NCBI GenBank assembly: GCA_052327205.1
Contig: CM126230.1
Span: forward strand, 42,346,001 to 42,410,000
Length of the DNA: 64,000 nucleotides
Direction: 5' to 3'
DNA from: Somniosus microcephalus
Lineage: Eukaryota
The position numbers and the translations under genes were made by a program. Positions 50-52,607 of the stretch are shown here, one piece after another. Under the pieces are notes generated by a model. That model worked only from the letters and a program-made list of their open reading frames with translations, was not told the DNA's origin and searched no databases. Numbering within the stretch: the stretch's first letter is position 1; each line of letters opens with the position of its first letter.

Positions 50-470
50 ATCAATGTAAGCTTGAGGAACAGCACCTCCTCTTTCGATAAGGCATTTTAC
101 AGCCTTCTGGACTCAACATTGAATTCAACAATTTCAGATTATAACCCCCTCATTTTTTTCAGGTGGCAGCTGTTGATGATTTTGCCATCCCCATTTGCAA
201 CATTTAACCACTGCTGCCTTGCAATCTAGCACAGACTGTCCCTTCAGTTCTTTCCTCCCCTCTTTCTCCACCGCCCCCCCCCCCCCCCACCCTTTCCCTG
301 CATCTGCTTAAAATCTGTTACATCTCCAACTTTTTCCAATTCTGAAGAAGGGTCTCCAAGCTGAAACGTTAACTCAGTTTCTCTCTCCATGGATGCTGTC
401 TGACCTGAGTGTTTCCAGCATTTTCTGTTATTTCAGATTTCCAGCATCTGCAGTATTTTGTTATTGTAAT
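50..470 (+). mobile_element. Penelope-like element 3' remnant (endonuclease C-terminus plus pLTR with hammerhead-like motif)
   Basis: Translates to CKLEEQHLLFR*GILQPSGLNIEFNNFR, matching the ORF end at 48532-48640. It is followed by a C-tract and ctgaaga...gaaacgttaact (338-374). Confidence 0.8.
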
Positions 471-13114: not shown

Positions 13115-14362
13115 ACACTGGTGTTCCCCAGGGTTCAGTGATAGGACCACTGCTGTTTTTGATATACGTTAATGACTTGGACTTTGGAGGTACAGGCAAC
13201 GTCCCCCATAAGCTGCACCGCCTCCTTCGCTGCTTGCATCCCCTAGTGCACGGCCCATTCAAGGTTTTGCGCATGCGTGGTATCTATACAATGGGAAAAG
13301 CTGTTGAGCAGCCTGCTCGGGAACTTGCAGATGACTGCGCAGCTTAGCGGAGACTTTGGGTGCAGGGCACAGTTTTGAAATTTGCAGATGACCAACTTGG
13401 AAGTGTAGTAAACTGTGAGGAAGATATTAATAGACTTCAGGAGGACACAGACAGGCTGGTGGAATGGGTGGACACACGGCAGATGAAATTCAGCGCAGAA
13501 AAGTGTGATGTGATGTATTTTGGTAGGATGAATAAGGAGAGACAATAAAAGCTAAATGGTACAATTTTAAAGGGGGTGCAAGAACAGAGAGACCTGGGGG
13601 TGTTTGTGCACAAATCTTTGAAGGTGGCAGGACCGGTTAGAAAGCTGGTACTAAAGCCTATGGGATCCTGGGCTTTATAGACAGAGGCAGAGAGTACACA
13701 AGCCAGGAAGTTATGCGAAACTGACATAAACACTGGTTTGGCTCCAGCTGGAGTATAGTGTCCAATTCTGGGCACCACACTTTAGGAAGGACGTGCTGGC
13801 TTTGGAGAGGCTACAGAAAAGATTGACTAAAATGGTTCCAGGGATGAGGGATTCCAGTTACATGGATAGACTGGAGAAGCTGGGGTTGTTCTCCTTTAGA
13901 GCAGAGAAGACAAAGAGGAGATTAGAGAGAGGTGTTTAAAATCATGAAAGGTTTAGATAGAGTAAATAAAGAGAAACTGTTTCCAATGGCTGATGGGTCG
14001 ATAACCAGAGGGCACAGATTTAAGGTGATTGGCAAAAGAACCAGAGGCGACAGGAGGAAAAACTTTTACGCAACCAAAATGTATCACCTCGCACTTTTCT
14101 GCTTTGAATTTTCATGTGTCCACCCACTCCACCGGCCAAATGTTAGGTTTTGGAATGCACGGCCTGATGGGATGGTGGAAACCAATTTAATAGTAGCCTT
14201 CCAAAGGGACTTGGATAAGTACTTGAACTAGAAAAAATTGCAAGGCTATGGGGAAAGAGTTGGGGGGGGGGGGGGTGGGACTAACTGGATTGCTCTTCGA
14301 AAGAGCCGGCGCAGACTCGATGGGCTGAATGGCCTCCTTCTGTCCTGTACTGTTCTATGATT
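13115..14362 (+). mobile_element. CR1 LINE RT/3' fragment, degenerate, with an internal inverted segment
   Basis: GVPQGSVIGPLLF, KFADD and EKLFPMADGSITRGH motifs; ttctatga tail; near-identical to 24066-25018 in reverse orientation. Confidence 0.9.
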
Positions 14363-14477
14363 CTTTACATAAAATGTATATAATATATACGTATGTAAGA
14401 CAAAAAGGATATTTATTTCAAAAACTGTTCCCTGATTCTCTCTTTGCTAATTTCTAATGTTTGCTAATTTTCTATAG

Positions 14478-19990: not shown

Positions 19991-20109
19991 AAAAATTTAA
20001 ACTGCAAATGAGGTATTTTCAAAAATATATTATTGACTGTATGCAGTTTGTCAACTTTTCTTCTTTCTTGGCAATGCACATAGAAATTAATTTTAATACT
20101 CTCAAATTG

Positions 20110-20295
20110 AAACAAAAATACTGAATATGCAGAGAAGGTCTGCCAGCACCCGAGTAGAGGAAAGATGGTTTAATGTTTCAGGTATTAATCCTTCATCAGA
20201 ACTAAAGGCTCTGAACCTTAAATGTTGTTTGTCTCTTTTCAGAAGTTGACAGACCAGCATTTTCAAATATGTTTGTTTTCCAGCATTTACAGTTT
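20110..20295 (-). mobile_element. Degenerate Penelope pLTR-derived repeat with a decayed hammerhead-like motif
   Basis: The minus strand reads agttctgatgaaggattaatacctgaaacattaaacc (about 20169-20204). Confidence 0.55.
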
Positions 20296-23186: not shown

Positions 23187-25430
23187 ACTAAGAACATAAG
23201 AAATAGGAGTAGGCCATTTGGCCCTTCAATAAGATCATGGCTGATCTTCTACCTCATCTCCACTTTCCTGCACTATCCCCATATCCCTTGATTCCCATAA
23301 TATTCAAAAATCTTACCGATCTCTGTCTTGAATATACTCAATGACTGAGCCTCCACAGCCCTCTGGGGTAGAGAATTCCAAAGATTCACCACCCTCTGAG
23401 TGAAGAAATTTCTCCTCATCTCAGTCCTAAATGGACGACCCTTTATTCTGAGACTGTGACCCCTGGTCCTAGACACTCCAGCCAGGGGAAACATCCTCCC
23501 TGCCAAGCCCTGTAAGAATTTTGTATGTTTCAATGAGATCACCTCTCATTCTTCTAAACTCTAGAGAATATAGGCCTAGTCTGCTCAATCTCTCCTCATA
23601 GGACAATCCCCCCATCCCAGGAACCAGTCTGGTGAACCTTCATTGCACTCCCTCTATGGCAAGTATATCCTTCCTTAGGTAAGGAGACCAAAACTGTACA
23701 CAGTACTCCAGGTGTGGTCTCACCAGGGCCCTATATAATTGCAGCAAGACATCTTGACTCTTATACTCAAACCCTCTTCTAACAAAGGCCAACATACCAT
23801 TTGCTTTCCTAATTGCTTGCTGTACCTGCATGTCAACTTTCAGTGGTTCGTGTACAAGGACACCCAGGTCTGAACACCAACATTTCCCAATCTCACCATT
23901 TTAAAAAAAAAAAAAAAAAAAATACTCAGCTTTTCTGTTTTTCCTACCAAAGTGGATAACTTCACATTTCTCCACATTATATTCCATTTGCCATGTTCTT
24001 GCCCACTCACGTAGCCTGTCTAAATCCCCTTGAAGCCTCCTTGCATCCCCCTCACAACTTAAATTCATAGAATAGTACAGGACAGAAGGAGGCCATTCAG
24101 CCCATCAAGTCTGCGCCGGCTATTTCGAAGAGAAATCCAGTTAGTCCACTCCCCCGCTCTTTCCCCGTATCCTTGCAATTTTTTCTAGTTCAAGTATTTA
24201 TCGAAGTCCCTTTTGAAGGCTACTATTAAATTGGTTTCCACCATCCCATCAGGCCGTGCATTCCAAAACCTAACATTTGGCCGGTGGAGTGGGTGGACAC
24301 ATGAAAATTCAAAGCAGAAAAGTGCGAGGTGATGCATTTTGGTTGCGTAAAAGTTTTTCCTCCTGTCGCCTCTGGTTCTTTTGCCAATCACCTTAAATCT
24401 GTGCCCTCTGGTTATCGACCCATCAGCCATTGGAAACAGTTTCTCTTTATTTACTCTATCTAAACCTTTCATGATTTTAAACACCTCTCTCTAATCTCCT
24501 CTTTGTCTTCTCTGCTCTAAAGGAGAACAACCCCAGCTTCTCCAGTCTATCAATGTAACTGGAATCCCTCATCCCTGGAACCATTTTAGTCAATCTTTTC
24601 TGTAGCCTCTCCAAAGCCAGCACGTCCTTCCTAAAGTGTGGTGCCCAGAATTGGACACTATACTCCAGCTGGAGCCAAACCAGTGTTTATGTCAGTTTCG
24701 CAAAACTTCCTGGCTTGTGTACTCTCTGCCTCTGTCTATAAAGCCCAGGATCCCATAGGCTTTAGTACCAGCTTTCTAACTGGTCCTGCCACCTTCAAAG
24801 ATTTGTGCACGAACACCCCCGAGTGTGTCTGTTCTTGCACCCCCTTAAAATTGTACCATTTAGCTTTTATTGTCTCTCCTCATTCTTCCGACCAAAATAC
24901 ATCACATCGCACTTTTCTGCGTTGAATTTCATCTGCCATGTGTCCACCCATTCCACCAGCCTGTCTGTGTCCTCCTGAAGTCTATTACTATCTTCCTCAC
25001 AGTTTACTACACTTCCAATTTCCCACCCAGCTTTGTATCATCAGCAAACTTGGATATATTACATTTGGCCCCCTCATCCAAATCATTGATGTAGACTGTG
25101 AATAGCTGAGGCCCAAGCACTGATCCTTGCGGTACCCCACTCGTTACAGCCTGCCAACCCGAAATGACCCATTTATTCCTACTCTGTTTTCTCTCCGTTA
25201 ACCAATCCTCAATCCATGCTAGTATTTACCCCCAATCCCATGAGTCCTAATTTTGTTTAATAACCTCGTGTGGCACCTTATCGAAAGCCTTCTGAAAATC
25301 CAAATACACCACATCCACTGGTTCCCTCTTCTCTATTATGCTAGTTACAACCTCAAAAAACTCTTCAAACACGATTTCCCTTGCATAAACCCATGTTGAC
25401 TCTGCCCAATCCTATTATTATTTTCTAAAT
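23187..25430 (-). mobile_element. CR1 LINE host element split by a nested CR1 at 24066-25018
   Basis: RT motifs continue across the insert: ctcacaactt...|...tcccacccagctttgtatcatcagcaaac; (aagaacat)n tail at 23190. Confidence 0.85.
24066..25018 (-). mobile_element. Nested CR1 fragment, inverted near-duplicate of about 13399-14360
   Basis: ORF 24185-24484(-) is nearly identical to ORF 13932-14231(+), including the aberrant ATKM(Y/H)HLALFCFEFSCVHPLHRPN segment. Confidence 0.92.
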
Positions 25431-35618: not shown

Positions 35619-35927
35619 GTAAAGCTTCCAGCTCAGTAGAAAGGACCTGGGTTGTTTTTATATTATTGTGTGTGCCATATCATTAGAGTTTTGACAAAAG
35701 TGTGAAAGTCTTTGAAAAAATCTTATTGGTCACTCTGCTTGCAACTATCCCTTCTGGCAGTGGTTCCCTTTGGTATGTGATGTGGGCAAGAGGAAATTTC
35801 TGTGTGAGACAAATGCAGTAAGTTTGAATTAAATGATGGGATAGAGCTTTACTTAATTTTAGTACAGACCAGTTGGGAAAATAGCTGAATTGTGCGTCAG
35901 ATAGACATTTTTTCCCTATGCAATTGC

Positions 35928-36341
35928 AAAATACTGCGGATGCTGGAAATACTCAGCAGGCCAGGCAGCATCCGTGGAGAGAGAAACAGAGTTAACGTTT
36001 CAGGTCTGGGACCCTTCATCAGAACTGGAAAAAGCTGGAGATGTAACAGATATTAAGCAGGTGCAGAGACAGGGGGGGGGGGTTAGGAGGGGAGGAAGAA
36101 ATAGAAAGAACATACTGTACTTTTGGAAGAGGCAGGAAATTCCCATTTGCAACATTTTATCTTTCCTGCCTCTTACAAAAGTACAGGATGTTCTTTCTAT
36201 TTCTTCCTCCACTCCTAACCACCACCCCGACCCCCCCCCCACCCCGCCTCTGCACCTGCTTAATATCTGTTACATCTCCAGCTTTTTCCAGTTCTGATGA
36301 AGGGTCCCAGATCTGAAACGTTAACTCTGTTTCTCTCTCCA
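35928..36341. mobile_element. Penelope pLTR pair in inverted orientation, forming a long hairpin
   Basis: 35975-36139 is the reverse complement of 36162-36341; the sequence is near-identical to 48845-49040. Confidence 0.88.
36290..36326 (+). ncRNA. Putative minimal type I hammerhead ribozyme motif (antisense twin at 35990-36026)
   Basis: AGTT-CTGATGA-AGGGTCCCAGATCT-GAA-ACGT-T-AACT. Confidence 0.6.
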
Positions 36342-46802: not shown

Positions 46803-47607
46803 ACAGCGTGCGAGTTGGGGTCCTGTCAGGTGCTGCTGTGGCAACATCATTTGCACCTTTGAAATTGGTTGCCGCACATTCTAGCCCAGAATAAATTCAG
46901 GCAGCCATTTACTGTCCCATCTCTGGAATCATACAACCTAAAACACAGGAAAGTCCATTCCATTTTTGGACTATAATACCTGTGGAACATATCCTTTTTT
47001 CAGGTGTAAGTAGTTAACTATCTAATGGAGTAGACTTTTGAAGAAATATGTCTTTTGATGCCCTTTCTAAGCTCCATACTGACTCAAATTATTTGTGGTA
47101 ATTCTGTAAGATCATTGCTTCATTTTAAATAATAAAATGACTATTCCATCCTAATGGAAAGATGAAGAAGGTTTCAATTTTACTAACATTGTCAAGATCA
47201 ACATTGAAGTCTACCGTTTAAAACTCCAAGTGAAAGATACATTTTCTTTGACAGACAAAGTCAACAGTAATTACACTTGTTCACTGTAAAATAAGCTTTT
47301 AAATCCCTATACATACCTAAAGTGGTGCTGCGTTTCATCAGATAGCCTGCTTGACCTATTCCCTGAAATCAGTTTAATAAACTGAAAGCTAAAATATGTA
47401 CCAGGACTGCACCTGTCCTTCATGTTGTTTATAGTAAGGAAAGTGAGTGATAGATTTTTAATGTTAATACATTAAGGTGACTTTCATAGTGTGTCTTATC
47501 CACCCCTTTTTTAATGTTGATTTGGGTAGGTGGGAGCAATATCAACTACCTGGCGATTATACCAAGAATTTTTGGTCTTAGTTTTGTTACCTTTTTTCCT
47601 GCTGCAG

Positions 47608-47690
47608 CAATTCAAAAAGAACTTGAAAGGAGTCAATGGTTCTAAAGATTTTGACCAAGATATGTTAGAGGACATCTATAACGCAATCAA
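47608..47690 (+). CDS. GBF1: GBF1 exon (QFKKNLKGVNGSKDFDQDMLEDIYNAIK)
   Basis: ctgcag|CAA...ATCAA|gtaagt; 83 nt, phase 0 to 2. Confidence 0.95.
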
Positions 47691-47889
47691 GTAAGTAGGT
47701 TTCACTTAAAACTTTCACTTCCAGTCAGCTTTTAATTGCCTCACCACGTCAGCTTTTAATTGCCTCACCACCTTCATAGTTTTAACAGCAATCTACAGAG
47801 TGAGCTGCAGATATGGGTAAATTCTTCTGTTTATTTTGATAAAGGATATTTCTAAACCATGTTTTAGAAGTAAACTTTATACGATGGAA

Positions 47890-48395: not shown

Positions 48396-49061
48396 GGGAG
48401 GGGGGGGGTGGTTAGGAGGGGAGGAAGAAATAGAAAGAACGTCCTGTACTTTTGTAAGAGGCAGGAAAGATAAAATGTTGCAAATGGGAATGGCAAAAAT
48501 CATACTGCATGAAAAATGGGGGCAGGGATAATTATCTGAAATTGTTGAACTCAATGTTGAGTCCGGCAGGCTGTAAAGTGCCCAATCGAAAGATGAGGTG
48601 CTGTTCCTCGAGCTTACGTTGAGCTTCATTGGAACAATGTAATAGCCCGAGGACAGAGAGATCAGAGTGGGAGTGGAGCGGTGAATTAAAGTGACAGGCG
48701 ACCGGAAGCACAGGGTCACCCGTACGGACTGAACGGAGGTGTTCCGCAAAGCGGTCGCCCAATCTGCGTTTGGTCTCCCCAATGTAGAGGAGACCGCATC
48801 GTGAGCAGCGAATACAGTATATTAAATTACAAGAAGTACAAGTAAAGTACAGGATGTTCTTTCTATTTCTTCCTCCCCTCCTAACCACCCCCCCCCCCCC
48901 CCCCCTGTCTCTGCACCTGCTTAATATCTGTTGCATCTCCAGCTTTTTCCAGTTCTGATGAAGGGTCCCAGACCTGAAACGTTAACTCTGTTTCTCTCTC
49001 CACGGATGCTGCCTGGCCTGCTGAGTATTTCCAGCATTTTCTGCTGTTGTTTCAGATTTCC
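48396..49061 (-). mobile_element. Penelope-like retroelement fragment: GIY-YIG endonuclease C-terminus (-) with an inverted pLTR (+)
   Basis: TCTSCNLIYCIRCSRCGLLYIGETKRRLGDRFAEH...EQHLIFRLGTLQPAGLN (48532-48845); 48399-48455 is inverted relative to 48845-48900. Confidence 0.9.
48951..48987 (+). ncRNA. Putative minimal type I hammerhead ribozyme motif
   Basis: AGTT-CTGATGA-AGGGTCCCAGACCT-GAA-ACGT-T-AACT: intact core, stem I AGTT/AACT, stem II AGG(G)TC/GACCT. Confidence 0.65.
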
Positions 49062-49674
49062 AATAGATAGATAGATTCGAGAGAGAGAATTATAAAGGAG
49101 TCTTACTTGCCACAGGGATTGAGGGTGTATTTACACTATAGGGTAAATTAGTGAGACCCTGCACTGAGAGCTGGTGCATATTCGAAAATCATAGCGAGCA
49201 GAATTTCTCCTTAAAGCTTTGCTGCGAAAGTGAACCAGAAATTATTTCGTGATACTGAGGTGGTCTGTAAATGCACTCTCAATTGCCCTCACTCTTTTAC
49301 TTCTTCCTATCCCCCCTCTCTCTCTCTCGCTCCCTCCTTTCTTTCCCACCCTCTCTTATCCTTTTCTTTAAAGGGCAACAGCCTTGAGGTTCAGGTGGAG
49401 GCAGAATAGCAGTGGCTGCTGAGGCATGGTGGGATGGGTGTCATTGACACTGCTGTATGCTGGAGGTGGGGAGCCTGCTGTTGGATGTAGGGGCCAGAGC
49501 TGTTGGCAGCCTCAGGTTCTGTCTCTGTGAGTCTGTCTCAGTCAGTTGCTCCAAGCTGGGTTATTGCTCTCCTCCCACACCCAGTACAAATTTATGCAAA
49601 TTTAAAATTAAAAGAAATTCTCGGGTAGTGATTGGGGCTTTGTCAGCAGGAGTGCACCAGATTGAACTACAGCG

Positions 49675-50206
49675 CCTGGTCCCGCCAGTGCTGCTGTCCT
49701 CCAGCCAGGCCCTTCCCGAGGAATCCACAATACTGCAGCTCCTGGTCCCGCCAGTGCTGCTGTTCCTCCGGTCAGACCCTTCCCGAGGAATCCACAGTAC
49801 TGCAGCTCCTGGTCCCGCCAGTGCTGCTCTCCTCCGGTCAGACCCTTCCCGAGGAATCCACAATACTGCAGCTCCTGGTCCCGCCAGTGCTGCTCTCCTC
49901 CGGTCAGACCCTTCCCGAGGAATCCACAGTACTGCAGCTCCTGGTCCCGCCAGTGCTGCTGTTCCTCCGGTCAGGCCCTTCCTGAGGAATCCACAGTACT
50001 GCAGCTCCTGGTCCCGCCAGTGCTGCTCTCCTCCAGCCAGGCCCTTCCCGAGGAATCCACAATACTGCAGCTCCTGGTCCCGCCAGTGCTGCTGTTCCTC
50101 CGGTCAGGCCCTTCCTGAGGAATCCACAGTACTGCAGCTCCTGGTCCCGCCAGTGCTGCTCTCCTCCAGCCAGGCCCTTCCTGAGGAATCCACAGTACTG
50201 CAGCTC
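49675..50206. repeat. Minisatellite, 8 units of 66/67 bp
   Basis: Units begin cctggtcccgccagtgctgct at 49675, 49741, 49808, 49874, 49940, 50007, 50073 and 50140. Confidence 0.95.
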
Positions 50207-51921
50207 TTGATTGAGTTAGGGATCCCTGTGTGATTTTCCACAAGCCCAAGGAGATTGAGGCCAGTTATACCCCCCTCAGCTCCTTGGCTGACGAAAAAAA
50301 CGTGCATTTATTTAGCAACTTATCACGTCCTCCGGGAGGACTAAGCAAAGACCAGGGATTGAAGCTCAAATTTTCTGATTTAGGGACACCAGTGCCACAC
50401 CGCTTGCTGTATCTACTCACTGTGAACTGTTGGTGTAACCTTATAAAGTAACTCTTTAAAGAAGTATTTCTGTGGCTAATAGCGATTTTCAATTGGCAAG
50501 AAGGGTGAAGTTTTGCCTTTGGAGATAGTTCAATCACAGTTGGAGAGAGTGAACCCATTGGTGACCTGTTTCAGAAATGTAAAAAATGTATTTAATTCAC
50601 TTCAAGGGCAAACCACTATAGTTAATAAATGAAAGACCACCGCTCAAGTATGAATAACCGCGTAACAAGCTAAAGCAATATTTGGCCACTGGCATTTGGT
50701 CCAGTTCATATGTTCCTCATAAACCTGGGTGGCTGTGATGTGGTTTTAAAAATAGAACTGCGGAGTATTAACGCTGTTTGAAACGCCAGTCAGATGTTTG
50801 CAAGCTATTTATATTGTTACCCTTCCTATCATGGGAGTCATTTCACTGTGGTCATACTTACCAAATGGCTCACACAAATACGTATGTTTTGATGCTTCAA
50901 TGTTTATAAATTTATAATTTTTTGGGAAGGAAGAACTTGCCAAAGATTTTAGAAATATGGTAAATATATATTCTTGATTTAATTTAGTCTAATGCCCGGG
51001 ATTGGTTGCTTGGAAGATTAAGAGCTCAAAGTGCCTGAGACGCAGGATGTTCATATTGCCTCAGATGGTTTCAATCTGGGACACATGCAATTCATAATTA
51101 TTGAAAGCTACTTAACTTTTGCATTTAGTATTAAAATCTTTTATCTGCACCATATACAGAGATTAATGACTCATGGGAACATTTTATATTTCTAAAATTA
51201 ACTCTGGGTGGGGTGAAAGTGCTGAGCATTTATAAAGTAACTTATCACATCCTCCGAGTATCCCAAAGCACTTTGCGTCCAATGAATTACTTTCTAACTT
51301 TAGCCGCTCTTGTTACGAAGGGACACGTAAGTTGAATATTTTACATGATCCAGTGTTGTAACTCTGAATATTGGAAGTTGTTGATCAGCATATGCTGACC
51401 TGTAAAACTGCAAAAAGCGTCTGAACAGGTTGAAAAAAAAACAACTCAAAAACAGCTCTGAATATCGGCCAATGACCGGAGTCATCGGTTTATGGTTACT
51501 GGATAAGTTCAATTCTTGTTATTGCGTGGGATTCTAGGATAGTTGTTGATTTTTTTACCAGTGTTTTCAGAATCACATTTGGTCCATTTATCTATGAAAA
51601 CTAAAGCTAATTGGCCTGCTTGAGTGATTTTTATCAGAAAATGCAGATCCCAGTCAACAAGCCTTGCCGAGAGTAATGCTGATGGCTGATGTGAATGCAC
51701 TCCAGGGACTGAACCTGGAAAAGTCTTTGTGTGTGGCTCAGTACCGCAGCAGGTGTGGAGCATTTACCCAATGAAATGCCAACATTTCTTAAAATCGTAT
51801 TTAATAGATTCGCTGCTGTTCATTAATTTTGATTAAACCACCTAACTAAAAGACAAAAGTAGTTGTAAAGGGGCTGGAAGGTTGCAGAATGTGGCAACTA
51901 AATTTTGGTTTACTAATTAGC

Positions 51922-52240: not shown

Positions 52241-52607
52241 AAAATAGTTCTTATTTTTGCAGTAACTTCAGATTTTACAACCATGTTTGATGTTGCCCCT
52301 TGCTTCCATTTTGTGGATTGCATCTGGGCCAGATGAATGTTAATTGTACTTAATTTCCCTGTACAAGCTGATGTACAGTGCACAAATTGCAAAATAAACT
52401 TCTCAATTTTTTCCTCCTACCCAAAATGAAACCTTTACAAAATTTGACAGGAATATTTATTTTACCATTGGGGATAAAGTGTTAATTAGAAAATAGGCTC
52501 AAACTGAATTTACTTATTATTTACAGAGCCAAATGTGCCGTATCATTCCTGGGTTGCTGTATGTGCTAGTACAATATCTCAAATAATTTTCTTTTTTTTT
52601 ACCCCAG

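Follow-up and report, generated by a model that had tools for sequence, protein, structure and literature searches.

Can hammerhead-ribozyme motifs lying in the introns of a host gene cut its pre-mRNA? The question is raised by GBF1 of Somniosus microcephalus, within a stretch of 64,000 nucleotides (hereafter the window; contig CM126230.1 of GCA_052327205.1, positions 42,346,001 to 42,410,000). A sequence-only reading of this DNA placed six copies of a minimal hammerhead motif inside the GBF1 pre-mRNA. It proposed that the two sense copies at 36290 and 48951 could join to form the stem III that each lacks, and so cleave the introns or release the RNA between them.

The placement in the gene is correct. 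Using tblastn with three shark-group GBF1 proteins, we located 20 exon blocks on the plus strand of the window, and all motif copies are intronic. A query with a GBF1 exon fragment matched GBF1 proteins, and those from cartilaginous fishes ranked among the nearest. The whole gene spans approximately 203 kb. A 705-nt inverted repeat (13566-14270 and 24146-24850, 97% complementary) flanks the exons at 14464 and 22423 and could favour back-splicing. In an upstream GBF1 intron, 10 kb before the window, locus L029 contains open reading frames that we take to resemble a DNA transposase and the pol of an LTR retrotransposon.

Table 1. Motifs, element pieces and neighbouring exon in the window.
Feature	Coordinates	Strand	Basis or remark
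Minimal type I hammerhead motif, intact	48951..48987	+	sequence anatomy
Intact sense motif, stem II with one additional G.U	36290..36326	+	sequence anatomy
Intact antisense motif, sequence identical to the 48951 copy	35990..36026	-	sequence anatomy
GBF1 exon, end of Sec7 domain, 5' of the intron holding 48951	47605..47691	+	tblastn; next exon from near 52606
pLTR piece: 3' UTR, hammerhead, start of tail	48844..49062	+	92% identity to L047
Inverted arm of the 48951 insertion: GIY-YIG C-terminus and 3' UTR	48396..48846	-	97% identity to L047
pLTR fold-back insertion	35922..36341	.	long-tailed minus-strand part 35922-36139; plus-strand part 36139-36341
Older PLE 3' end (EN end, 3' UTR, tail)	51..468	+	about 78% identity to L047; holds 338-374
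Fragment (55 nt) from a related subfamily, with truncation at C3	27809..27863	+	without stem I
Decayed pLTR fragment	20100..20204	-	palindrome lost

A hammerhead-like core is present at every one of the six sites, but they do not form a uniform set: the copies at 48951, 36290 and 35990 are intact, those at 338, 27809 and 20169 defective. The anatomy described for 48951-48987 is there in full. Stem I (AGUU/AACU) joins 48951-48954 to 48984-48987; the core is formed by CUGAUGA (48955-48961) and GAAA (48976-48979), with one extra A. Stem II pairs 48963-48967 with 48971-48975 over 5 bp (G.U, GC, GC, UA and CG) and is closed by the loop CCA. Stem III is reduced to the palindrome ACGU (48979-48982), and the triplet GUU (48981-48983) sets the predicted cut between 48983 and 48984. 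A GUU triplet is weaker than GUC. As for the defective copies, 338-374 carries an A.C within stem I, with only three of five pairs left in stem II; the 27809 motif, truncated at C3 and devoid of the 5' strand of stem I (one pair of four), has an A.C in stem II; and the palindrome of the 20169 motif has become ACAU.

The core CUGAnGA...GAAA...UH is thus found in the type I topology, together with the traits of minimal hammerheads (min-HHR): a short stem I, a stem II, an extra nucleotide after A9 and a palindromic stem III. The pair 10.1-11.1, G.U in the 48951 copy, is always purine-pyrimidine among 31 rows (GU 20, AU 5, GC 5, other 1). The proposed search of Rfam gave no hammerhead family among the 15 cmscan hits in the window at E<=10; matches to miRNA families at 36050-36265 fell below the gathering score and were discarded as a product of the fold-back found there. 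Two of the 30 sampled loci (L072:1501-1526 and L084:1501-1526) belong to a subfamily with a shorter stem II, a G10.1-C11.1 pair and a GUC triplet, features by which it may be the more active form.

The motifs derive from the terminal repeats (pLTRs) of a young Penelope-like element (PLE), probably of Neptune type, which encodes a reverse transcriptase (RT) and a GIY-YIG endonuclease (EN). The sequence-only reading had pointed to minimal type I hammerheads with palindromic stem III in Penelope pLTRs, and both the element and the motif anatomy bear it out. Across the genome of 6.45 Gb, an exact 41-mer occurs 4,096 times, with the strands balanced, against 0 for the control; the descriptor CTGANGA-N10-22-GAAACGT matches 50,121 times against 1,902, some 48,000 above control; and the 68-nt context of the motif has 2,326 exact copies. 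The EN stop codon of family copies precedes the motif by about 185 nt. An 881-aa frame at locus L036 shows RVT_1 at 406-532 (E=2e-4, below the cut-off), followed by GIY-YIG at 784-817. Two direct motifs, about 3.1 kb apart, surround the RT-EN frame at 3 of 20 long-ORF loci, and several of the 20 have inverted motif pairs. Before EN, the family ORFs carry the linker CKRRRCNTC (CX4CxxC); a CX2-5CxxC linker is given as a Neptune/Nematis trait in the available part of PMC8557442.

The same partial source describes usual PLE insertions as having pLTR partial tandems, inverted 5'-truncated copies and a tail of 30-40 bp (PMC8557442). Partial pLTR tandems, inverted 5'-truncated copies and two clusters of 3' ends, traits of EN+ PLEs, are seen in this family, and the window insertions follow the ordinary pattern as far as that text sets it out. 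Mapped on the full-length copy L047, the window pieces resolve into five separate truncated insertions, of which the two young ones (48396-49062 and 35922-36341) are both inverted. The inverted arm of the former holds a stop codon at 48532-48534 and stops short of its own hammerhead; its GIY-YIG domain (window 48535-48843, minus strand) scores 23.7 bits with Pfam PF01541, for a cut-off of 22.6. The window contains 5 motifs where 0.5 are expected, and the flanking 220 kb contain 2 where 1.7 are expected; since the excess is restricted to the window, we take it as a selected cluster. About 600 bp past the 48951 insertion, units of 66 and 67 bp alternate in a tandem array (49666-50209) that has long open frames.

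In subfamily A (48958-48960 in the window, L043, L047), the core includes an ATG (A6-U7-G8) in frame with RT, 26 nt before the cut. Cleavage as a remover of the start codon was considered; the idea is weakened because subfamily B is without the in-core ATG and an ATG at about +50 is common to A and B (7 loci).

Would such motifs act on GBF1? Joint action of 36290 and 48951, in which each completes the stem III of the other to cut the pre-mRNA or free the RNA between them, draws on two intact sense copies with core and ACGU palindrome preserved and on the weak dimer activity of PLE hammerheads (Cervera and de la Pena 2014, PMC4209133, excerpts). The predicted folds, which are equilibrium structures without protein, speak against it. 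The antisense partner of 36290 sits 264 nt upstream and is transcribed first; region 35922-36341 is predicted to form a 370-nt fold-back of -305 kcal/mol, in which 36290 is 99.9% paired to its own antisense copy (P=0.999). The shared ACGU helix contributes only about -1.7 kcal/mol. The two copies are 12,661 nt apart with five GBF1 exons between them, so releasing the intervening RNA would destroy the mRNA. Nor are sense copies depleted: intact-core matches across GBF1 number 6 in sense and 1 in antisense (p=0.125, small n), with no sign of purging. Even full-length elements, with motifs 3.1 kb apart, show no pile-up of ends. We consider this joint action exceedingly improbable.

In the sense pre-mRNA, 35975-36341 makes a long, near-perfect fold-back, and its predicted structure might be edited (A-to-I) or processed by Dicer. 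In addition, the PLE pieces at 35940-36082 and 48895-49037 constitute a 143-nt inverted pair, 99% complementary, on either side of the five exons; its antisense arm is mostly occupied by the local hairpin.

The 48951 motif is a perfect sense copy outside the predicted fold-back, and the only other near-intact sense copy in GBF1 lies 109 kb upstream; both facts count against a set of copies that does no cutting. Lone copies of this kind might instead be cut slowly in trans, through ACGU, by an RNA-protein particle of the PLE wherever the element is expressed. Partners would abound, with about 48,000 above-control core matches having the same palindrome, and family RNA occurs on both strands in two RNA runs. 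The hammerhead of PAc, the Poseidon element of Anolis carolinensis (Frangieh et al. 2024, PMC11167929, excerpts), also cleaves with protein assistance; this help is tied in the excerpted text to binding within the ORF, which is mostly absent from the 48951 copy. The 4-bp helix is moreover weak, and stem I of 48951 is unstable in context, forming with P<0.01 in the predicted folds of both 77 and 237 nt. Read ends do not pile up at the cut among the six pile-ups listed, a weak objection as cDNA libraries miss such ends. Trans cutting of lone copies is accordingly judged very unlikely. Its genome-wide extension, by which tens of thousands of intronic ACGU half-ribozymes, completed in trans by the element particle, nick host pre-mRNAs including that of GBF1, is highly improbable; if true, trans-cleavage of host introns would be a new route for a transposon to affect host RNA throughout a genome. 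Altogether, the motifs probably do not cut GBF1 pre-mRNA.

Whether the motif is under constraint at all was asked by comparing its core with the flank, and the core is indeed the more conserved, contrary to the equal conservation that would have spoken against the sequence-only reading. When 11 core sites are left free, differences occur in 700 of 6,742 copies (10.4%), as against 791 of 3,922 (20.2%; p=2e-43) when the free sites are 11 composition-matched ones of the 5' flank. This corresponds to a change per site of about 1.0% and 2.0%, respectively. The flank excess is partly made of recurrent subfamily variants, one change being found in 7 of 24 variant rows among the first 100 listed, and the flank may itself be functional. 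In copies anchored on EN (76 of 84 loci kept, 8 removed with flanks missing or deleted), the difference has the same direction (p=0.08, n=76); CpG decay strikes the palindrome in 10 of these 76. The sequence pattern fits constraint in the lineage of the element, that is, selection on transposing lineages and not on inserted copies.

The stems are paired in 93.5% of cells, compared with 10-47% in slid controls. The covariation that the sequence-only reading had suggested looking for in the stems is not significant: 214 of 500 shuffles reach as high on pairing and 152 of 500 on the covariation score, and the changes are mostly wobble.

It could be argued from these data that the motif has lost its ribozyme function even within the element and persists for another reason, be it a signal for protein binding or structure, or an overlap with coding sequence. 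The ends of genomic copies do not mark the cut, 10.1-11.1 is mostly G.U (20 of 31 rows) where G-C is usual, the triplet is GUU, and the in-core ATG of subfamily A is in frame with RT. Coding is opposed by subfamily B, where three of the four copies checked have a frameshift and a stop in the frame through the core; the core is retained despite the broken frame, which points to constraint at the level of RNA. Furthermore, the constrained sites are the catalytic ones, N7 and loop II being those that vary between subfamilies, and the homologous PAc motif cleaves, with rescue of C3G/G8C, according to the excerpts of PMC11167929. A loss of ribozyme function appears very unlikely.

The ends of genomic copies give indirect information on the template of reverse transcription. 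Counted from C3, 3' ends (ungapped walk; 20 loci selected for intact motif) fall at +90-104 in 54 of 103 cases and at +130-139 in 30, with 3 at +25-34, around the cut (+29). The 5' ends of ORF-bearing copies are scattered, and the entire 5' core is retained in 50 of 89. These come from 90 loci out of 551 matches, all mapped except L172, and a few pairs resemble duplications. One of the 89 ends lies exactly at the cut, and four lie within -7..0 for about 2 expected (p ~0.17). L036 had suggested that full-length copies begin at the cut site, an idea rejected on these counts. As ends are not gathered at the cut, templates were presumably for the most part uncut, or cut and rejoined. A cut-and-religate circle route would be compatible with the genomic ends, and religation would restore the motif; identity between 5' and 3' pLTRs within elements (n=3) is uninformative on this route.

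Family RNA was detected in the two RNA runs, which come from a matching or related species. With reads placed on L047, none of the 6 pile-ups listed is at the cut (1669/1670), and this negative is weak because standard cDNA libraries miss such ends. No GT..AG joint was seen among the 15 joints listed out of 22, also a weak negative. On the plus strand, 48920-48952 combines a CTTAAT resembling a branch point with a pyrimidine tract and an AG end placed exactly in stem I. This splice-like arrangement is reminiscent of a D. virilis intron whose end falls at helix I (PMC4209133, excerpts).

We now propose that the GBF1 motifs are, very probably, hammerhead-shaped pieces of PLE terminal repeats brought into the introns as five truncated insertions, with likely no meaningful cutting of GBF1. 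In the full-length element, with about 3.1 kb between direct motifs, the motif would cleave weakly as a dimer sharing ACGU, probably with the assistance of the element protein; this step relies on the anatomy of the element and on published PLE hammerheads. To judge from the mapped ends, reverse transcription would start about 60-105 nt 3' of the cut site, for the most part on RNA left uncut or rejoined after cutting. With such a template and such a start, nearly all truncated 3' ends would bear an intact-looking motif. Once inserted, copies decay, the core gathering about 1% change per site.

How does this family compare with known hammerheads? Like those of RECK, C10orf118/CTCL and DTNB in amniotes, the GBF1 motifs are type I, in sense and in a host intron (excerpts of PMC6155905 and PMC10761166). 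The RECK type occupies single loci there, is shared across classes and is depicted with tertiary contacts, whereas GBF1 copies are young, multicopy and minimal, with element flanks and no helix III. A domesticated RECK-type hammerhead was rejected, given that the 68-nt context recurs exactly 2,326 times and that helix III is missing. Non-LTR retrozymes are also pLTR-derived and hammerhead-bearing, and are reported in the one chondrichthyan sampled (bioRxiv 10.64898/2026.07.22.740005, seen in part). The window copies differ from them in being PLE ends, either truncated or inverted, of which two have EN coding sequence attached, and in making no tandem monomers; a retrozyme was dismissed, since on the full element the copies correspond to distinct pieces, truncated or inverted.

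By sequence, the GBF1 motifs possess the features of known PLE min-HHR. In the excerpted text of PMC4209133, these are type I, with a 4-bp stem I, an extra nucleotide between 9 and 10.1, a palindromic 15.2-16.2 and no loop III. They reside in pLTRs of fish Xena, Poseidon and Neptune elements, mostly as single truncated copies, and occur in opposite-strand pairs 100-700 bp apart, all as here. Monomers are described as inactive and dimers as having low activity. The shark pair 10.1-11.1 is mostly G.U or A-U, unlike the conserved G-C published there, and stem II has 5 bp, unlike the 7-8 bp in Schistosoma. Our count of about 48,000 core matches may be set beside about 4,000 in coelacanth and about 9,000 in Xenopus, obtained with different descriptors. 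Sharks are not named among min-HHR hosts in those excerpts, and our literature search on hammerhead, Penelope and shark found no shark case in the portions of papers available, whose supplements may list shark families.

A further parallel is PAc (PMC11167929, excerpts throughout). There, too, the hammerhead stands at the pLTR-ORF junction, with the cut 26 nt after an ATG (here in subfamily A), 3' ends form two clusters 30-40 nt apart (the tail), and uncut RNA is the main template. The PAc hammerhead requires protein, is dispensable for insertion in vitro, and has no RNA-seq ends at its site in the text consulted. The shark family differs by its CX4CxxC linker before EN and by ends at about +90-105 and +130-139 from C3. 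For GBF1 the motifs matter little. For PLE biology their value is modest: a young vertebrate family of very high copy number, with constrained catalytic sites and ends that are not at the cut, makes a good test case for whether PLE hammerheads act by a cut-and-religate circle, and its genomic ends match the in vitro result for PAc.
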